From positions 26,412,001 through 26,476,000 of the forward strand of contig NC_073390.1 of assembly GCF_028641065.1 (NCBI RefSeq): 64,000 bases of DNA, given 5' to 3'. Below, piece by piece: positions 36,000-46,009 of the stretch (positions are counted from its first letter, which is position 1; each line of letters starts with the position of its first letter). Source of the stretch: Leucoraja erinacea. Lineage: Eukaryota. Under the pieces are notes generated by a model. It was not told where the DNA came from, did no database searches, and saw only the letters and a program-made list of their open reading frames with translations. A program made the translations under genes and the position numbers.

Positions 36000-38120
36000 C
36001 ATCCATACTTTGAGGGAATTGGACAGAGCAAGTGACTGGAGAGTCACTTGTTGATGCTTTTGGGATAAGCGACCACAATTCTATGGGCTTGGTTTTGTGT
36101 ATAGAGGACCGTGTCTTGTAAATTTGATTGTCTTTTGAAGAGATTAATAAAAAGATTTACAAGGCCAGGGCCATAGATGTAGTCTATATGGACATCAACG
36201 TTGATAAAGTCATGTGGTAGGTTACTCTGGAAGGTTATATCGCATGTGATTTAAGGAGAGCTAACTAACCAGATGCAGAATTGACGGTACACAAAAATGC
36301 TGGAGAAACTCAGCGGGTGCGGCAGCATCTATGGAGTGAAGGAAATAGGCAACATTTCGGGCCGAAACCCATCTTCAGACTGACTCCTTGGTAGGAAATA
36401 GAGGTTGTTGGGGAAGGATTTTGTTCAGACTGGAGGCCGGTGACTAATAGCATGTCTCAGGCATTGGGGCTGGACCCAATGATTATTAAGTTTGTGGATG
36501 ATGTAAAAGTAGATTGTATCGGAGGCAGTGAAGATGATTATTAAAAATTACAGTGAGATCTTGATCAGCTAGGCAATGGGCCAAGGATTGGTAAATTGAG
36601 TTTAATTCAGATGGGCGAGGTGATGTATTTTGGCTAGTCAAACCGGGGCAGGAACTGCACTGTGAATGATAGGTCTAGGTGTTCAAGTAAATAATTCTCT
36701 GAAAGTAATGTCACGTGTGGTGAAGAAGGCTTTTGGCTCATTGGCCTTCATCATTCAGGGTATTGGGTATAGACGTTCGGACGTTATGTTACAGTTGTAC
36801 AAGACATTGATGAGGCCACACTTGGAGCATTGTGTTCAGTTTTAGTCACAGTATGGAGTTCAAGATCATCTTTAATCAGTACCCATATTATAGCAGTACA
36901 GCAGGTCGTTAGTTGTTTGTTCATCGTTACCGCTACCAAGACTGACCAGTGTAGGAAGTGGGTGTTAGTATGAATCTTACAGTAAGGTGGGGTTAGTGAT
37001 GCTATTCTACTATGATTGGTTCACATGCAATAACCAATCTACATCCTTCCCCGTAAAGAGCGAATATAGTTAAACACACATGCAGCTGGAATTTAAACAT
37101 ACTCGCCATATCTATCAGGCGGTCTACTAATACGGCCCAAACGCGTACGGACCAAGCCCTCTCCCCCTTCGCCAGAAAAGTTAGAGGGAGGCGGTGAACC
37201 CGGAAGTGAGAAAGCAGCTGGGGACACTCGTGCTGACCGACAGGGGGAGCATGCGGGTGAGGTAGTGTTGTTGTTAGTCATGGCCGCCGGTCGTGGTGGA
37301 GTAAGGGACATGCTGGAACTAGTGGTGGCCATGGCAGCAGACGGCTGGAACGGTAGAGGTGGAGCGAAAGGATCGGCTGGTGGGGGACGTGGTTCCTTCA
37401 CAATCAGCAAGTGTTGGCGGCTCCGACGGTACAAGGCGCCATCGATGTCAACAAGGTAGGATCGGGGTTCTTTGGACGGGCCGAAAACGCAACCTAGACG
37501 GGAATGTCCCACGGTAGTTTGCAAGCGGACGACTTGGCCCGGTAGTAGTGGTTTAAGTGGTTTGCTGGACTTGTCATGTGATCGTTTCTGGATGTCGTGT
37601 TTCTCCTGAATGCGCTAAACACACTTCCCACTTCTGACACCATGTAAATAAGCAGACTACACAGTCTGGAGTTCAAGATTATCTTTAATCAGTACCCATA
37701 TTATAGCGGTATAGCAGGTCATTAGTTGTTAGTTCATCGTTACCGCTTCCAAGACTGACCAGTATAGGAAGTGGGTGTTAGTATGAATCGTACAGTAAGG
37801 TGGGGTTAGTGATGCTATTCCACTATGATTAGTTCACATGCATTAACCAATCTACATGCCATTAAGTTTGGCATTCTAGCCATTAAGCTGGAAAGAATGT
37901 AAAGAAGATTTACGGGGATGTGGCAGGACTCGAGGGACTGAGCTAGAGGGAACAGGGGGACAGGCTAGGGCTTTTTTTCTTAGCATGCAGGAAGCTATGA
38001 GATGATCTTACTGATGTGTATAAAATAATGAAGGGAATAGATAGGGTGACTGAAATTATTTCTAAGAATAGGGTAATCAGGAACTAAAGGGCAAAGGTTT
38101 AAGGTGAGAGGGGAGGGTGT
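36000..38120 (+). mobile_element. Decayed CR1 RT fragment hosting a Penelope terminus (36285-36385) and a Gypsy element
   Basis: GATGTAGTCTATATGGAC, TTGTACAAGACATTGATGAGGCCACACTTGGAG; resumes after 37856 with GCCATTAAGCTGGAAAG. Confidence 0.75.
36847..37856 (-). mobile_element. Internally deleted Gypsy LTR retrotransposon (~1 kb, TRIM-like)
   Basis: 5' LTR 37643-37856 (TG..CA), 3' LTR 36847-37043 (outer ~17 bp lost); PBS TGGTGTCAGAAGTGGGA matching tRNA-Leu 3' end; PPT GGGGAAGGA; internal ORF 37093-37524 PRSYLV..YRRSRQHL..TRLGRISRPPDRY typical of Gypsy integrase C-terminus. Confidence 0.9.
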
Positions 38121-38880: not shown

Positions 38881-40892
38881 TGGTCACGTGGTGCTCAAAG
38901 AGCTAGCCCGCAACAACATCCCACCTGAAGTATCTGGATAACAGTAGAGTTCTGCTTTCTGCCTCCAGGTTTGTTCAGTGAGATCTGGGATCTCATTGTT
39001 GCTGGAGGGGGAGGACTGCCAATAGTTTCTTCTCAATGCCCTTGAATGTAACTGCATCTGTTAAAACCAAATTGTGCAGCCACAACCATATGTCCAGATT
39101 TAGAGTTCATTGGAGTCAGTGCTTGTTTTGTGCAAGCACATATATTTCCCTTGCTACTGGTGTTTGTGGTGATCATCATCATTAATTCTAAGAAGAAAAT
39201 ATACAAGTAATGTCATGACCCTAATCCATAACTCCCAGAAATTTGCTCCATAAGTATATAGAGTAGCAAAGAAGGCATATGCAATGCTTGCCTTCATAGT
39301 TCGAGGCACTGAGTATAAGAGGGATGGTGGCTGATGCAAATATGACAGCGCCATGTTAGAGATGTTTGGATAGACATACGGATATGCAAGGATATGGATC
39401 ATATACCGGTAGATAGGAGTCGGTCTTGGCATCATGTTCGGCACGGACATTATAGGCTGAAGGACCTGTTCTTGTGCCGCACTTGTTCTATGCTCTATAA
39501 CTTGCTTAACTAGTTAATACATATTATTTTAAAACATTAGTAATCTTTTTGTAATATTAATAATTTAAAAAATGTGAAAATCTATCGTTTTACATTTTTA
39601 GAGGAGGCAGCACGCCAGATCGGCGGGTACCATCACAAAAAATGCACTGGTTGTAGTGAACCTTTACAGGCACCAGGAGTCACCATCCTTGCCTGGCTCC
39701 AAAGGGATAAAATTGTTATTGGTATTTGTTTATTGTTGTCCTGAGATAAACTGAGTCCAAGTGTACTGAGATGCAGTGAAAACGAGTTTACGTGCCTTCC
39801 TGTGGAATCAGACTGTACATGAACACAATCAAGCAGGGAGCAAACTACCAGAATGCTGAATGTGGACAAGTAGGAGTAAGCTCAGTTGGAAGGCTGTCTC
39901 CAAGGGGATATGCAAGGATGATTAGTTCATATCATTATTGTGGTATGTTTTATTTGACTGTAAATGTAAAAAATTGTGTTCATTAATTTTTTTCATAAAT
40001 TCAATCCAGTATTCAATAAGATTGCACCTTGGCAGAGCAAAACCTCTGCTCCATTTTCCTGCCAGTTCCCCATGGGCCCCAAACCTCACACAGACTAAAA
40101 ATCTCACGTCCGAGCCTTGAATATGCACAGTGATTCGGCTTCCGCAGTGAGTTCCAAAGACTTGCAGGTTTCTGAAGAGGTTCCTGTTTATCTCCATCTA
40201 ATGTAACAGAGATTATGCCCCTTGTACTAAACACTCCCCAGCAGTGAAGACCTCTCAGCTTCCACCCTGACTTGCCCCTCAGAACGTGATATGTTTCAGT
40301 AAGATCGCCTTCTGTCCTTAACTCCATGGATAGGCCCATTTTGCTTTGTCTTTAGTGATAAGATGAGCACTTTCTGTTCCGATTCGATTTTCGATATGCA
40401 TACCCTGAGGCAACCGCATCCTTGCTTAAATAAGGAGATCAAAACTACGTACACTATTCCACTTATAGAAACATAGAAAATAGGTGCAGGAGTAGGCCAT
40501 TCGGCCCTTCGAGCCTGCACCGCCATTTGATATGATCATGGCTGATCATCCAACTCAGTATCCCATCCCTGCCTTTTCTCCATACCCCCTGATCCCTTTA
40601 GCCACAAGGGCCACATCTAACTCCCTCTTAAATATAGCCAATGAACTGGCCTCAACTACCTTCTGTGGCAGAGAATAGTAAGATTAAACGAGAACTTACC
40701 AGTTTGAAGTTTGATCTGTATTTTATGAGGAGTTACGATGAGGGATTTCGTGAAGAAGCCCGCTTCCACGCATGCGTGTCATACTTCAAAGCAGCGGTGT
40801 GAGGTCACAGGAACCTATAATGATCTAACATAGTAAGATTACCAAAGAGATACCAGTTTTTGATATGATCATAAGAGGGTGGGAGCGGAGGG

Positions 40893-41004
40893 CACGAAAT
40901 CCCTCATCGTAACTCCTCATAAAATACAGATCAAACTTCAAACTGGTAAGTTCTCGTTTAATCTTACTATTTTACTTCGGAGTCACGTGAGTGACTTCGT
41001 GAAG
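40893..41004 (-). repeat. DIRS internal complementary region (ICR)
   Basis: 40893-40970 is the exact reverse complement of 40675-40752; 40970-41004 is the exact reverse complement of 45435-45469. Confidence 0.93.
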
Positions 41005-41239
41005 ATTTCAAAGCTCTGTGACCTCATGCCGTGGAACGAGTCCATGCTTCACAAACTGCCTTGGGTATTGGGAGAGAGCATCATTAGTAATTTTAAAACA
41101 CAATTATACAAAGAGTTGTGTGGTATAACGAAAAAATATATAACATTTTTTAAAATTTGAGAATCATAGCCCTGTAACCTTTCGGGCAAATTATTTTGTT
41201 GAACATAAAATGTTTTCTTAATACAATGATGGCTCCAAA

Positions 41240-42080
41240 AAATAACTGGTTTATTATAAAACCTGTGGAAAAACCCTTTTTGAATGACCATCCTGCCATT
41301 CTGAGGATTTGGACTGTGGGTACCTGTACAATTTTTGCTGCGGATGTTGCTGCAGCCCTGGTGGAATGAGAGTTAAAACATTAGTGTCTATTTCTGCCAT
41401 TTTTAGGACCTATCTGAGCCACCTTGGTATAGTTTGAGTCGTGACCCTTTCATGCGGTTTCTTGTAAGAGATAAACAACTCCATTCTGTGACCTCGAATG
41501 TTCTTAGTATATTCTATGTATTGTTAGATGTGTCTTGCTATACACAGTCGTTTGCCATATGGGTGTACCATAAATTCAAACACTTGACCCGAGGAACCCG
41601 ATCTGTTTTCTTTTATTAAATCCTGTATGACAACACCAGTTTCTCGGTGAGATGATCAGGGAGTCCAGGCTCAGTTTGCTTAATGGCTGGACTTGTTGTG
41701 CGGTAAATAACACCATGAGCATAACCATCTTCCTGGACTGTTACTGAAGTGACAACGCTGTTATGAGCTACAAGCTCCTCAGCATGTTGAGAAACGACAC
41801 CCACGTCCCAGATTTCGGAGTACCTGGTTTTCTTACCAGGGGTGCGTTCCCACACCGCGTGCCGCTCTGTTCCTTGTGATAGGTAATTGGAGAGTGCACT
41901 TGTGGCACTATTGATGGCACTGTAGCCCCATCGATTATGATAATGGAGGCTTGTTAAAAAATCCAATACGGCCAGAAATTCTTGGCCTGTTGGTCGAGGT
42001 TGTTGTCCAAGCAGTATATGCCCCATTCTTGATGTGTCCAAGGTACTGCTTCCGTGTTGACAGTCTTAGTGCAGATGAGA
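41240..42080 (-). pseudogene. DIRS tyrosine recombinase remnant
   Basis: LDFLTSL..GYSAINSATSALS, RYSEIWDV, SHSTRAAATS (~41340-41372), GWS..FHRFYNKP with the presumed catalytic Tyr; frameshifted. Confidence 0.85.
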
Positions 42081-42289
42081 TGAGATTCATCGTCCTGTCT
42101 GACAGCCCACTGCCGTGTAGTGGGTCTTTTAGACTCTACCAATCAATAAATCCATAGTCTTATGGCATGGATGACTGCCTCCAGTCACTGGATAAATTAA
42201 TAATTTTTGGCTATGTACATTAGGGAACATGGTTCTAACACCATCCCCTGTATGACCGAATACCATGATTAGTAAATAATATTGGGGCT

Positions 42290-42745
42290 GATGATTGCCC
42301 CTTTTGTAAGCTCTATATTGCCAAAGTTCCTCTTTTGAGTCAATGCCTGCCATATAGAAAAAACCCAGCTGACACCAAGTCTTTATCAATAATAAGAGTA
42401 TCCATCTTAAAATGAATATCTAGAACAAATGTGTTTAGGGTTAAAATCAAATGATAATCCTGCAACCCTACTCTATTTTATTTAATAAATATGTTTGATA
42501 CAATTCTAATGTTCCATGAAAAGTATGCTCAATCACACCTTTCGTGTACAATTTTTTGTAGCACCATGTGGGTTTTGGATTGTTTGGTTTATGTAAGGAC
42601 AAAATGCCCTTCTGGTGTATGTTGTACTGTGGTTATTGGGATGAGTAAATCCTATCAGATAACCCTGAATACTGCTGAGATTATATGAATCTGTAGTGAT
42701 TATATACCATACATAACTGTAGTGTTGCAACCTCCCCCACCATCG
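42290..42745 (-). pseudogene. DIRS reverse transcriptase N-terminal remnant; catalytic core and RNase H apparently deleted
   Basis: VGGRLQHY..W..ITTD..IQGY.IGF, LNTFVLDIHFKMDTL, FYMAGID, LWQYRA, then a jump to pre-YR sequence. Confidence 0.75.
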
Positions 42746-42752
42746 TGGGTCC

Positions 42753-43556
42753 CTATTTTAACAGAATAAACCCCACCCACCTACCTCCATGGTTACCGGT
42801 GGTTGAGTTATTTCCTTGTTTTTTTTTTTTAAAAAGGAGGTTCTGGTTTGATATCTCTTGTTCGGGGTTGTGTGGGAGGTTGAGGCTTCTGCATCTTCCA
42901 GGGTGGCCGCCCTGGCCATACCCTAAAAAAGGATCCTGCGGGTTATATTGATTTCTGGCACTGCCACTGGTATGAGCCACATTTTTTATGGCCTTGCCTG
43001 TGGCTGGTATCATGCCCCAAAATAGGCCCTTGCGCTGGCCTTGATGAGCCCCAGTGTCTTGGCTTTGTCCACCCACGGTTCTTTGTTTGCAAATGGTAGC
43101 ATTTTGGGGTCGTAGTGCTGGCTGAATGGCCGCCTTCCACGTGTAGTTCAGGTCATATTGCGTATTACTAAACAGAGCTAGTGCGTCTTGATGGTCTTGG
43201 TTACCTACGTTTAGTCCAGGGTGCGGGTGTATGCTATGATGCCTTCCGTGAATCCCTTTAAGGTTCTCTGGATCTTGAGGTCCTTGGTTCCTGATGTTCG
43301 TCCCCATATGCTGCCAAATGCATTGGTTTACACTGGGCACCTGTAATGCCTCACCGTTGCCAGGTGGCAGATGTCTGGCCAGTGTCTGTAAATTTTTTCT
43401 TGTTGGCGTTTGTGGCCAGACATATAGTAATACTATTGCCATCCTGGATCCAAGTCTACCCATGTTTGACTTGGCTAAAGTAATCAGCCACCATGTCCAG
43501 CAGAGTCCCTGCTGTGTTAGGATCATGGGACGCTGTATTACCAGGCTCTGGCCCAT
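42753..43556 (-). pseudogene. DIRS gag-like ORF remnant (may extend to ~44076)
   Basis: PPGNGEALQVPSVNQCIW and DALALFSNTQYDLN resemble DIRS ORF1 motifs; position upstream of RT. Confidence 0.65.
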
Positions 43557-44232
43557 CAGGGTCCTGCCTACTCTTTTTTATAGAGTTAGAGATCTCTAGG
43601 GTCCCGCACGGGGTACCCATGTGGGGCTTAACTGCTGCCCACTTGTCTTTTGTTCTGCGGACCCCTCTTGCAAGTCAACCCAGAACTGACCCACAGTGCT
43701 CCCCTCTGATGGGGTAGAAGCATTGTGCAGCCCTCAAAGAGGTACTGCTGTGGTTTTATCACGTTGGAGCAAGGCTCCATACACCGCTTCTTCCACTCCA
43801 GCCCTCTTGGTGCTGGTTGCTGGCGGTATTATGCAAAGTCGGACCCTCTGAGTCCACTACCTTGTTTGATTTGTGTCTAGCCTTACCGCTCGGCCGCATG
43901 GAGCTGGCCCGTGCGGGGCCGACATCGGGCACAGCTGATCCCACTACGGATGATCCAAGTGCCGCTGGCTGCTGCTGGCTGCCCGCTGTTCCATGGTCCT
44001 CCTTCTCCAGTTTTGTCCTTCCTTCCATGGAGTGGATATGGCCGGTGTGGAGGATAACTGGCACAGCTGCTTCCATCTATTCCTTTAACCCGGCTCCAAC
44101 GCTCTCAGCACTCCTGGCTGCTCCTTTATCTTAGACCCCTGGGACCGACCCCCATACTGACGGTGCTGGTCCCTTGCGGTCGTTGCAGCCGGTCAACCCC
44201 ACTCTAATGCCCTCAATACTGGACACTCCTAC

Positions 44233-44291
44233 TTATATGGTCCTTAGATAAGGGACATATAAGACATTCAAACTGATGATAACAGCTACTA
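44233..44291 (-). pseudogene. Second, more diverged U2 snRNA fragment (approx. nt 33-91)
   Basis: Minus strand TAGTAGCTGTTATCATCAGTTTGAATGTCTTATATGTCCCTTATCTAAGGACCATATA aligns with the adjacent copy. Confidence 0.75.
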
Positions 44292-44300
44292 TAGTTTTTA

Positions 44301-44395
44301 TTTAATATATGGTCCCTAGATAAGGGATGAATCAGATATTAAACTGATAAGAACAGATACTACACTAGACCTTAGCCAAAAGGCCCAGAAGTGAT
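44301..44395 (-). pseudogene. U2 snRNA 5' fragment (nt 1-95) inside the DIRS leader
   Basis: Minus strand ATCACTTCTGGGCCTTTTGGCTAAGGTCTAGTGTAGTATCTGTTCTTATCAGTTTAATATCTGATTCATCCCTTATCTAGGGACCATATATTAAA; ungapped 83/95 match to human U2 as recalled, nt 30-65 identical; stops just before the Sm site. Confidence 0.92.
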
Positions 44396-44570
44396 TATTG
44401 TAACTAAAAACCCCGCTGGGACCGACCCTGGTACTCACATACTGGTCCCTTGTAGTAGATTGCAGCCAGTCAACTGCAAAGTCCTTTGCTGCCGAGAAAT
44501 GAATTTTCTCACCGTGCTGGAGCGAAGTTGGGCACCGGTGTTTTCCCTCTCCGGGAATCGATGTGCCCAT

Positions 44571-44692
44571 GCTGCTCCTGCCGTTGCCAGCTCCTGCCGT
44601 TGCCAGCTCCTGCCGCTGCCAGCGCTCCTGCCGCTGCCGCTGCTGCCGCTGCCGCTGCCGACTGCCGTTACTGCTCTCCTGCCGGCTGCCTG
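44571..44692. repeat. GC-rich minisatellite (GCTCCTGCCGTTGCCA)n grading into (GCTGCC)n
   Basis: Directly visible tandem units. Confidence 0.8.
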
Positions 44693-46009
44693 CACTCCGC
44701 GGTTCTCCCGCCGGCATTCTGCAGCTGACATGGACCCAGTCCATGTCTGCACCTAAAGGTAAGTGGAAGGAAAACGCAGAGTCTCCTACCTGCGGTTCCC
44801 GACTTTTCATACTCCCGCTGGTGAACGTTGTTCCCTGCGTGTCGGGTTCGAGCCGCTCGGACCGACCCCGGTGTTCACGGGCCTGGTCCATTCGCGGCAG
44901 TTCCTGTACCTATGGATCCCCTGGACCAACCCCGGTGCTTACCTTTTGAAGAAGGTTTTCAGCCCGGACGTCCAGTTCCTACTCCATAGTGCCGCTGCAC
45001 TCGCTGAGCGTTTCCAGCCCTGCTGTGTACCCCGGGTACTTACAGCGCTGGTCCCTGCTCTCTGTCCCGCAGCCTTCGCGCTGGCCGCTAGCGACTGTTC
45101 CAAGCCAGTCTCGCTAAAGACTGGCATACGGGACCTCTTTGCTTTGCTTCCCGCCCGGCCGAGAAGTGAATTTTGCCGGTGCGGGAGCAAAGTCGGGCAC
45201 AGGTTGTTCCCCTCCAGGGAAACTCGTGCTGTTGCTGCTGCCGGCTGCTCGCCCTCCACGGGTCTCCCCGCCAGCTTTCCGCAGCCTCCTAAAAGGTAAG
45301 TAGAAAAAAGGAACGCAGAGTCTCTTACCTGCTGTTCCCGACTTTCAAATTCTCCCGCTGGGGAACGCCGTTCCCCCTGTGTGACTCGTTGCAATGCGTG
45401 TAGCGATATGACACGCATGCGTGGAAGCGGGCTTCTTCACGAAGTCACTCACGTGACTCCGAAGTAAAATTTCACAGATTCACCACTCTGTGTAAAAAAT
45501 GATTTCCTCATCTCGGTCCTAAAAGTCTTCCCTCTTATCCTTAAACTGTGACCCCTAGTTCTGGACTTCCCCAACATCGGGAATAATCTTCCTGCATCTA
45601 GCCTGTCCAACCCCTTAAGAATTTTGTAAGTTTCTATAAGATTCCCCCCTCAGTCTTCTGAATTCCAACGTGTACAAGCCAAGTCTATCCAGTCTTTCCT
45701 CATATGGAAGTCCTGACATCCCAGGAATCAGTCTGGTGCACCTTCTCTGTACTCCCTCTTTGACAAGAATGTCTTTCCTCAGATTAGGAGACCAAAACTG
45801 TACGCAATACTCCAGGTGTGGTCTCACCAAACCCTGTACAACTGCAGTAGAACCTCCCTGCTCTTATACTCAAATCCTTTTGCTATGAATGCTAACATAC
45901 CATTTGCTTTCTTCACTGCCTACCAATGATCTACCAATGCTCTCTACATTTGCAAGAAGGCTCCCCTCTTTTAAACTCCATCCTCTTGCATGAAAGGGAA
46001 CATTCCATG

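Follow-up and report, generated by a model that had tools for sequence, protein, structure and literature searches.

The minus strand of a 64,000-nucleotide (nt) stretch of the Leucoraja erinacea genome (RefSeq assembly GCF_028641065.1, contig NC_073390.1, positions 26,412,001 to 26,476,000 of the forward strand; hereafter the window, in whose own coordinates positions are given) carries a non-autonomous DIRS1-like retrotransposon at 40674-45470. Its 5′ part holds repeats predicted to fold into hairpins, two pieces of U2 small nuclear RNA (snRNA) and two copies of a putative splice donor, which a preliminary description had read as a structured leader of U1-binding hairpins with U2-like RNA. 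We consider it likely that the hairpin units are decayed gag coding repeats, probably without a role as U1 sites, and that U2 was patched in later by the DIRS reverse transcriptase (RT) switching onto a co-packaged snRNA and back. We also favour, if only slightly, the broader proposal that skate DIRS elements combine a retrovirus-like donor on a too-short intron with repeated patching of Sm-class snRNAs (U1, U2, U4 and U5, not U6) into an element that is still moving.

The DIRS element at the locus

DIRS1-like elements have non-identical inverted terminal repeats (ITRs), an internal complementary region (ICR) near the right end, the gene order gag, RT/RNase H and tyrosine recombinase (YR), and a trinucleotide at the ends (PMC7192593, as far as its text was available). 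The copy in the window is made up as follows, L numbers denoting genomic loci used for comparison.

40674-45470, minus strand: whole non-autonomous DIRS1-like retrotransposon, recognized by its ITRs, ICR, YR-DIRS homology and terminal ATT
45407-45470, minus strand: left ITR, its first 45 nt identical to L093-L095
40674-40783, minus strand: right ITR with 3′ extension, found by self-comparison for inverted repeats
40893-41005, minus strand: ICR, complementary to both outer ends
41240-42800, minus strand: deleted and decayed remnants of RT/RNase H, a presumed methyltransferase region (labelled by analogy with DIRS anatomy) and YR, placed by alignment to relatives
42890-44076, minus strand: module C plus gag core, additional decayed gag (44017-43636 is 76% identical to L099)
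45060-45288, minus strand: module A, decayed gag N-terminal fragment, homologous to the L099 gag start and with an in-frame version in L140
44490-44752, minus strand: module B, decayed gag N-terminal fragment with a low-complexity expansion, placed by sequence comparison

The ITR pair (45407-45451 with 40739-40783) is 96% identical, each ICR arm matches its outer end at 100% (40969-41005 with 45434-45470, and 40893-40971 with 40674-40752), and both element ends share the trinucleotide ATT. The order gag, RT/RNase H, YR is kept, the remnants aligning to L081 and L099, whose frames match the Pfam families RVT_1 and Phage_integrase; a Pfam scan of the window's own remnants and of gag gave no match.

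In related families of about 4.9 kb, represented by 20 loci fetched through a YR search, gag starts 170-220 nt from the 5′ end. Two parts of the window align to the L099 gag start, 45286-45147 at 70% and 44017-43636 at 76% identity, so what had been taken for a leader is a stack of duplicated 5′ ends and no leader. The closest named proteins come from little skate.

A DNA search of the genome (2.19 Gb), with the best 40 of 3547 candidates scored, found copies of the element at 93-98% and at 88-90% identity. Twenty copies fetched in full are collinear and mostly about 4.9-5.0 kb long, and none has an open frame of more than 200 codons wholly inside the element, which marks the family as non-autonomous. 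DIRS RT can act in trans on defective elements (PMC7192593, available part).

The terminal repeats and ICR of the window copy are 99-100% identical to the L093-L095 family, while the interior is closer to L099 and L081; this split may be a hint of which family supplies the proteins. In the mosaic copies L194, L146 and L100, two or three donor-bearing 5′ modules of differing family origin are stacked, which suggests frequent template switching between DIRS RNAs.

Hairpin units as decayed gag repeats

The preliminary description placed five strings, three hairpins and two half units, around the U2 fragments. All five occur on the minus strand where they had been placed, with 44923-44946 starting AAAG-GTAAGC, and the two supposed half units turn out to be a single interrupted one.

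44141-44173, minus strand: unit of the gag repeat, translated as R-D-Q-x-R-Q-Y-G-G-R-S-Q and predicted to fold as a hairpin (z -3.35)
44418-44449, minus strand: unit of the gag repeat, lacking one base and predicted to fold as a hairpin (z -2.05)
44859-44889, minus strand: unit of the gag repeat, translated as D-Q-A-R-E-H-R-G-R-S and predicted to fold as a hairpin (z -1.87)
44923-44946, minus strand: 3′ part of the interrupted gag unit, by comparison with sister loci
45030-45055, minus strand: 5′ part of the interrupted gag unit (a former 'half unit'), unsplit in L131 and split in L134, L135 and L137
44947-45030, minus strand: 84-nt dispersed-repeat insertion splitting the unit, known from background matches, with a GTAAGTACC-containing stretch duplicated at both sides

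The 84-nt repeat has 12 matches in 11 of 92 background records, one of them at window 36287-36377.

In the gag frame the 44859-44889 unit and what follows read D-Q-A-R-E-H-R-G-R-S-E-R-L-E. The named gag proteins P0001 and P0002 contain the repeats TGAREYRGR, TSAREHQGR, TSAREHGSRLERLL and TSAGEHESRLERLW, and the sister subfamilies L199, L203 and L205 hold three to four in-frame repeats of the form P-R-A-(A/T)-S-A-R-E-H-(W/R)-(S/G)-R-L-E-R-L-Q, with which the window units align base by base; against L205, the 44859-44889 unit keeps the codon run CGT GAG CAC CGG GGT CGG nearly intact. On this alignment the units descend, in decayed form, from the tandemly repeated gag peptide A-R-E-H/Y-R-G-R, and what looks like a splice motif is read as coding sequence, GTGAGT corresponding to Arg-Glu-Tyr codons and GTGAAC to Arg-Glu-His codons. 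Another reading of the units, Val-Ser-Thr-Gly-Val-Gly-Pro, was dropped, the gag proteins and in-frame copies giving the A-R-E-H/Y-R-G-R frame. In L131-L134 the derived unit forms a tandem repeat of 106-117 nt.

The stem-plus-motif pattern has 981 matches in the genome and none for a reversed control, but these are copies of one transposon lineage and therefore not independent cases. An Rfam scan of 43500-46000 gave U2 as the only family above threshold, with no ribozyme or other family.

Two successive U2 captures

44300-44395, minus strand: U2 snRNA nt 1-96, second and younger capture (Rfam 92.2 bits), starting at +1 and ending before the Sm site
44234-44297, minus strand: what is left, after decay, of the earlier U2 capture (about nt 28-90), which is intact in the basal locus L137

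The Rfam match to the U2 5′ piece spans 44395-44290 on the minus strand. The piece lacks the traits of a functional U2 gene, since it ends before the Sm site and its flanks are DIRS sequence.

Hairpin units occur without U2 in 13 of 20 loci picked from the pattern matches, and in a tree of the gag/RT stretch (24 rows) the 15 U2-bearing rows form one clade (support 100/99) nested among U2-less copies that bear hairpins; the hairpins therefore predate U2. Comparison of L137 with L134 shows that U2 took the place of about 16 nt between two successive repeats, so the bracketing of the U2 pair by two units, noticed at the outset, is automatic. U2 1-90 is unchanged in basal L137, and the first U2 is decayed in L138 and L145-L149, including the region that pairs with the branch site. 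A fresh U2 1-96 then stands in front of the remnant; L171 and L180 have all 96 identities, and in the subfamily of the window renewed decay has brought the count down to 90-94. The order was thus hairpins, first U2, decay, second U2, and the earlier idea that the U2 piece works together with the hairpins is not supported, given the greater age of the hairpins and the decay of the first copy. The second capture was probably aided by homology with the first. Separately, 44396-44411 and the far junction at 44294-44309 form an 81% inverted repeat.

snRNA pieces inside DIRS across the genome

In the Rfam searches of the genome the best 42-48 candidates per family were scored, so that the counts below describe a sample of best-scoring candidates and no census; for U2, 38 of 47 scored matches were inspected. 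DIRS sequence lies on both sides, on the same strand, in 31 of 38 matches to U2, 6 of 42 to U1, 5 of 11 to U5 and 4 of 11 to U4. These collapse to 10 independent sites. The five U2 sites are the gag repeat, the RT start (full length, in L159, L160, L162 and L163), L161, L169/L170 and L187; two U1 sites lie in L223 and in the L224 group, two U4 sites in L283-L285 and in L286, and one U5 site in the subfamily of L141, where the piece follows a hairpin unit at a distance of 136 nt; the site is empty in L135, L140 and L143. L161, L187, L223 and L286 are single-copy.

All 10 pieces are in the sense orientation (p 0.002), and their first base is +1 or lies only a few bases from it. Four truncated U2 pieces end at nt 90-96, just before the Sm site, and the U2 and U5 pieces of full length are followed by short runs of A. 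At several junctions DIRS sequence has been lost (about 140, 180 and 535 nt). The DIRS share of the background, measured over 275 kb, is 0.7%. By events counted by eye, DIRS contains 10 of about 39 Sm-class retrocopies and none of 37-40 U6 retrocopies (Fisher p about 0.001).

All of the top five U2 matches of full length (L159, L160, L161, L162 and L163) lie inside DIRS, and none of the 38 inspected could be recognized as a U2 gene by a promoter-type flank of its own, unlike for U1, U4, U5 and U6. Annotators should take warning that 31 of the 38 top U2 matches, these five included, are DIRS-borne. The captured U1 at L223 1501-1633 differs in its first stem from the U1 genes of L209-L219. U6 copies L258, L263, L291 and L299 share a common 3′ flank, perhaps a U6-headed repeat or a U6-LINE (long interspersed nuclear element) chimera family, and L323 is a U2 match without the U2 5′ end that could be a remnant of a U2-targeting element.

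A conserved donor in the DIRS leader

45289-45328, minus strand: leader donor CAG/GTAAGA (slash at the cut) with pyrimidine tract and AG, 40 nt, copy A; 8 of 11 U1 pairs
44753-44789, minus strand: leader donor CAG/GTAGGA with AG, 37 nt, copy B, on an internal duplication of the element 5′ end, by sequence comparison

Two 'further donors' had been listed near 45327 and 44795. They are sited at 45328 and 44789, and they hold up as a conserved leader 5′ splice site that is distinct from the hairpin motif. An AG/GTAA donor stands just before the gag ATG, at +136 to +150, in 17 of 17 DIRS 5′ ends examined, with 8-9 U1 pairs each; these ends, all from this genome, fall into six groups of about 65-85% identity where comparable. 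A further 12 metagenome DIRS loci were found, and the six that were examined have no 5′ ends. Downstream of the donor comes a pyrimidine- or GT-rich stretch and then an AG shortly before the ATG in 16 of 17 (absent in L093), making an intron-like stretch of about 29-70 nt.

Across the window's wider lineage, 777 of 785 genomic matches keep 31-55 nt of this stretch, five show partial deletions and three have lost it exactly, so the RNA that was copied had almost always remained unspliced. The exact losses reduce to two events, one in L153 and one in L157 and L158 (shared flanks), and a 4-5 nt repeat (microhomology) at the ends makes their nature ambiguous. In the L090/L097 family no match showed loss, the total number of copies searched not having been counted. 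Reads from three RNA runs (5-25% of each, depth about 5-55, tissues not stated) were mapped to 44690-45480, where all 30 bins were covered in both mate orientations; at this low depth no joint used 45328 or 44789. We read the leader donor as a probable U1-binding major donor on RNA that stays unspliced. Human introns have a length threshold of 65 nt, yet introns of 37-65 nt are spliced (PMC4463651, available part). The leader stretch lies at or under that threshold.

In retroviruses the major splice donor lies upstream of gag on RNA that is kept unspliced for copying. The DIRS leader donor resembles it in being strong and in preceding the gag ATG, about 140 nt from the 5′ end, and differs in that its AG follows within about 29-70 nt and is only a putative acceptor. 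It gives a starting point for studying how genomic and messenger RNA are kept apart in vertebrate DIRS elements.

The leader stretch (window 45289-45328; L081 4203-4235; L146 1195-1233, oriented) often contains CTTACC, complementary to its own donor and resembling the U1 5′ end, as in AGGTAAGA with TCTTACCT in L081 and AAGGTAAGT with ACTTACCTT in L146; folding of the stretch in the window gave no significant z-scores. A donor-like ATGGAG/GTAGGT at the start of the RT frame (window about 42775-42790, minus strand) recurs in L099 and L100.

How snRNAs could enter a DIRS element

In the mechanism we propose, the DIRS RT would jump from DIRS RNA to an snRNA, run to the snRNA 5′ end and jump back. 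DIRS needs ends restored through the ICR (PMC7192593, available part), and because the ends must be completed only double jumps would survive. Sm-class snRNAs would probably be picked up during their cytoplasmic maturation step. U6 does not pass through that step, so cytoplasmic pickup fits its absence better than a stalled spliceosome does. Retroviruses package cytoplasmic U2 precursors and A-tailed small RNAs, and host RNA is patched into their complementary DNA by template switching; murine leukaemia virus and Rous sarcoma virus also package U6 (PMC4997597, available part). The DIRS patches are comparable to this, but DIRS has neither integrase nor tRNA primer, and U6 was not found.

Some observations weigh against our account. 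DIRS-embedded U6 was absent from the 48 best-scoring matches, a selection that could have missed truncated U6 pieces inside DIRS; the U4 loci L283-L285 show a DIRS terminal repeat upstream and only weak RT/YR remnants downstream; and the window's U2 piece is preceded by an additional 15-16 nt (44396-44411).

The snRNAs might instead reach the RT not as cytoplasmic precursors but out of spliceosomes that have assembled, or have stalled, at the short leader intron, an alternative that we regard as possible but doubtful. It gains from the strong donor in every leader with an AG at so short a distance, from U2 and U1 accounting for 7 of the 10 sites, and from the truncated U2 pieces, which end ahead of the Sm site as bound Sm proteins would make them do. 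It fails to account for the capture of U4 and U5 without their tri-snRNP (small nuclear ribonucleoprotein) partner U6, and the A runs after the full-length U2 and U5 pieces fit processing intermediates. A model of capture from the prespliceosome alone (U1 and U2) is weakened by the U4 and U5 captures.

The snRNA captures and the leader donor together bear on how DIRS packages its RNA and starts reverse transcription, both open questions (PMC7192593, available part). Strand-specific capture of Sm-class snRNAs would predict which RNAs adjoin the DIRS RT, and, if our proposal is true, the pieces form a genomic fossil record of the contents of DIRS particles and of where they assemble.

Folding and selection of the unit stem

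The hairpins had been described as keeping their stem and GT motif while neighbouring bases vary. Against dinucleotide shuffles the three full units do fold, with the z-scores listed above, whereas z is +0.52 and +0.28 for the half units, which form no hairpin. An alignment for covariation was built from 24 shared 37-nt variants. They come out of a set of 263 units (92 loci) once variants present in a single copy, units 36 or 38 nt long and the type with the interruption are set aside. The five core pairs show no Watson-Crick compensatory change among the 24 variants, with two one-sided changes and one break, and the outer pair is unpaired in 11 of 24. Pairs with a two-sided change are no more frequent than in shuffles (118/500 and 68/500 reached as many). 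Persistence through selection is thus not borne out, the units being paralogues of one duplicated coding repeat, and for the GGACC/GGTCC stem we infer that a single origin followed by copying explains the pattern: a weakly self-complementary, GC-rich repeat would have changed on both arms once, giving the stem, and then have been tandemly duplicated. The hairpin array itself would be an ordinary by-product of decayed coding repeats.

Other features of the stem speak against this. The derived units (z -1.3 to -3.8) fold better than the in-frame gag repeats, whose folding is weak (z -0.2 to -1.4) and in which GGGACC/GGTCCC is missing; the variants hardly differ in the closing stem; one inner pair shows a two-sided change in each of two mutually exclusive registers; and most shuffles fall below the observed percent paired and covariation score (0/500, 9/500 and 0/500), in a control inflated by relatedness. 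The stem may alternatively have been exapted after coding was lost, as a packaging or dimerization signal that helps a non-autonomous lineage compete for helper proteins. The gain in stability over the in-frame ancestors, the scarcity of variation in the right-arm stem columns, the retention of one to five unit copies per lineage and the hundreds of copies in the genome would all suit such a signal. We nevertheless hold it to be unlikely, given core pairs without compensatory change, a unit number that varies freely, with one unit destroyed by insertion or, in the 89% subfamily, deleted, and autonomous families such as L093-L095 that have no such unit.

Comparison with known systems

DIRS-1 of Dictyostelium shares with the window element its ITRs, ICR, gene order and end trinucleotide. 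The window copy differs in being non-autonomous and in having a duplicated, mosaic gag 5′ end, and the available part of PMC7192593 mentions neither a leader donor nor captured snRNAs. No description of snRNA capture or of a conserved leader donor in DIRS was found in the literature searched, which comprised sources other than subscription papers, Repbase and supplements.

LINE-1 snRNA chimeras arise by template switching as sense fusions, mostly with U6, at the 5′ end of the insertion, and internal switching in them yields 3′-truncated U5 pieces (PMC11838501; PMC4476161; both available in part). The DIRS sites resemble them in carrying a sense snRNA fused to a retrotransposon. In the chimera, the snRNA forms the 5′ terminus of an insertion that is dead and has a target-site duplication, and U6 dominates (same sources). 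The DIRS pieces, by contrast, are internal patches that would need two jumps, in an element still moving, and U6 was not found; the chimera traits of a 5′-terminal snRNA, target-site duplication and poly(A) are replaced by an internal position, DIRS on both sides and junction deletions.

It is improbable that LINE machinery placed snRNA retrocopies into genomic DIRS by chance and that DIRS then amplified them. LINE-type poly(A) snRNA retrocopies are indeed common in the genome, and amplification raises the odds of seeing DIRS-borne copies. Chance insertion sits poorly with 10 of 10 sense pieces in so small a share of the background, with the four single-copy sites, with U6 at 0 of 48 although most of its matches look like poly(A) retrocopies, and with deletions instead of clear duplications at the junctions. 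If patching by the DIRS RT is true, it would be a third route to snRNA retrocopies, through which one U2-bearing family has reached hundreds of copies.

Keno and Utopia are non-LTR (long terminal repeat) elements that target U2 genes and split U2 near nt 37-38, and SINEU likewise joins a transposon to U2. They were considered and rejected as the source of the window's piece: U2 1-96 is continuous and unsplit, lies inside DIRS and does not form the head of a SINE (short interspersed nuclear element).

Unit motifs as 5′ splice sites

Scored for pairing with the 5′ end of U1 as encoded in this genome, the unit 'donors' form 7 (44161), 7 (44438), 5 (44878), 8 (44942) and 7 (45043) of 11 possible Watson-Crick pairs; among all GT sites in the window, 5.5% reach at least 7 and 1.2% at least 8. 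The core at 44161 is GTCAGT, 44878 (GTGAAC) is at background level, and the variants GTGAAC, GTAAAC and TTAAAC are common among units. The RNA runs contain no GT-AG joint in 44690-45480, and hence none at unit donors 45043, 44942 and 44878, with 44438 and 44161 outside the coverage; three joints listed in them also occur in contig run X12 and match module-number variants. The 7-8 U1 pairs of four of the five motifs and the thinness of the RNA data count the other way. The hairpin units are likely to have no role as U1 sites, and the notion that they were built to display such sites lacks support, the motif being gag codons. A selected leader of U1-binding hairpins and a U2 mimic, controlling polyadenylation or the balance of spliced and genomic RNA, is very improbable, for although four motifs pair well, U2 was gained twice at one place and short inverted arms surround the U2 piece, the motif is coding sequence with common variants, the hairpins are older than U2, the decay of U2 includes its branch-pairing region, and U1, U4 and U5 were captured likewise at unrelated positions.

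Elsewhere in the window, at 36847-37857, 198-nt direct repeats (94% identical) surround a 173-amino-acid frame that resembles the last part of pol from an LTR retrotransposon, so that the whole is read as a small remnant of such an element.

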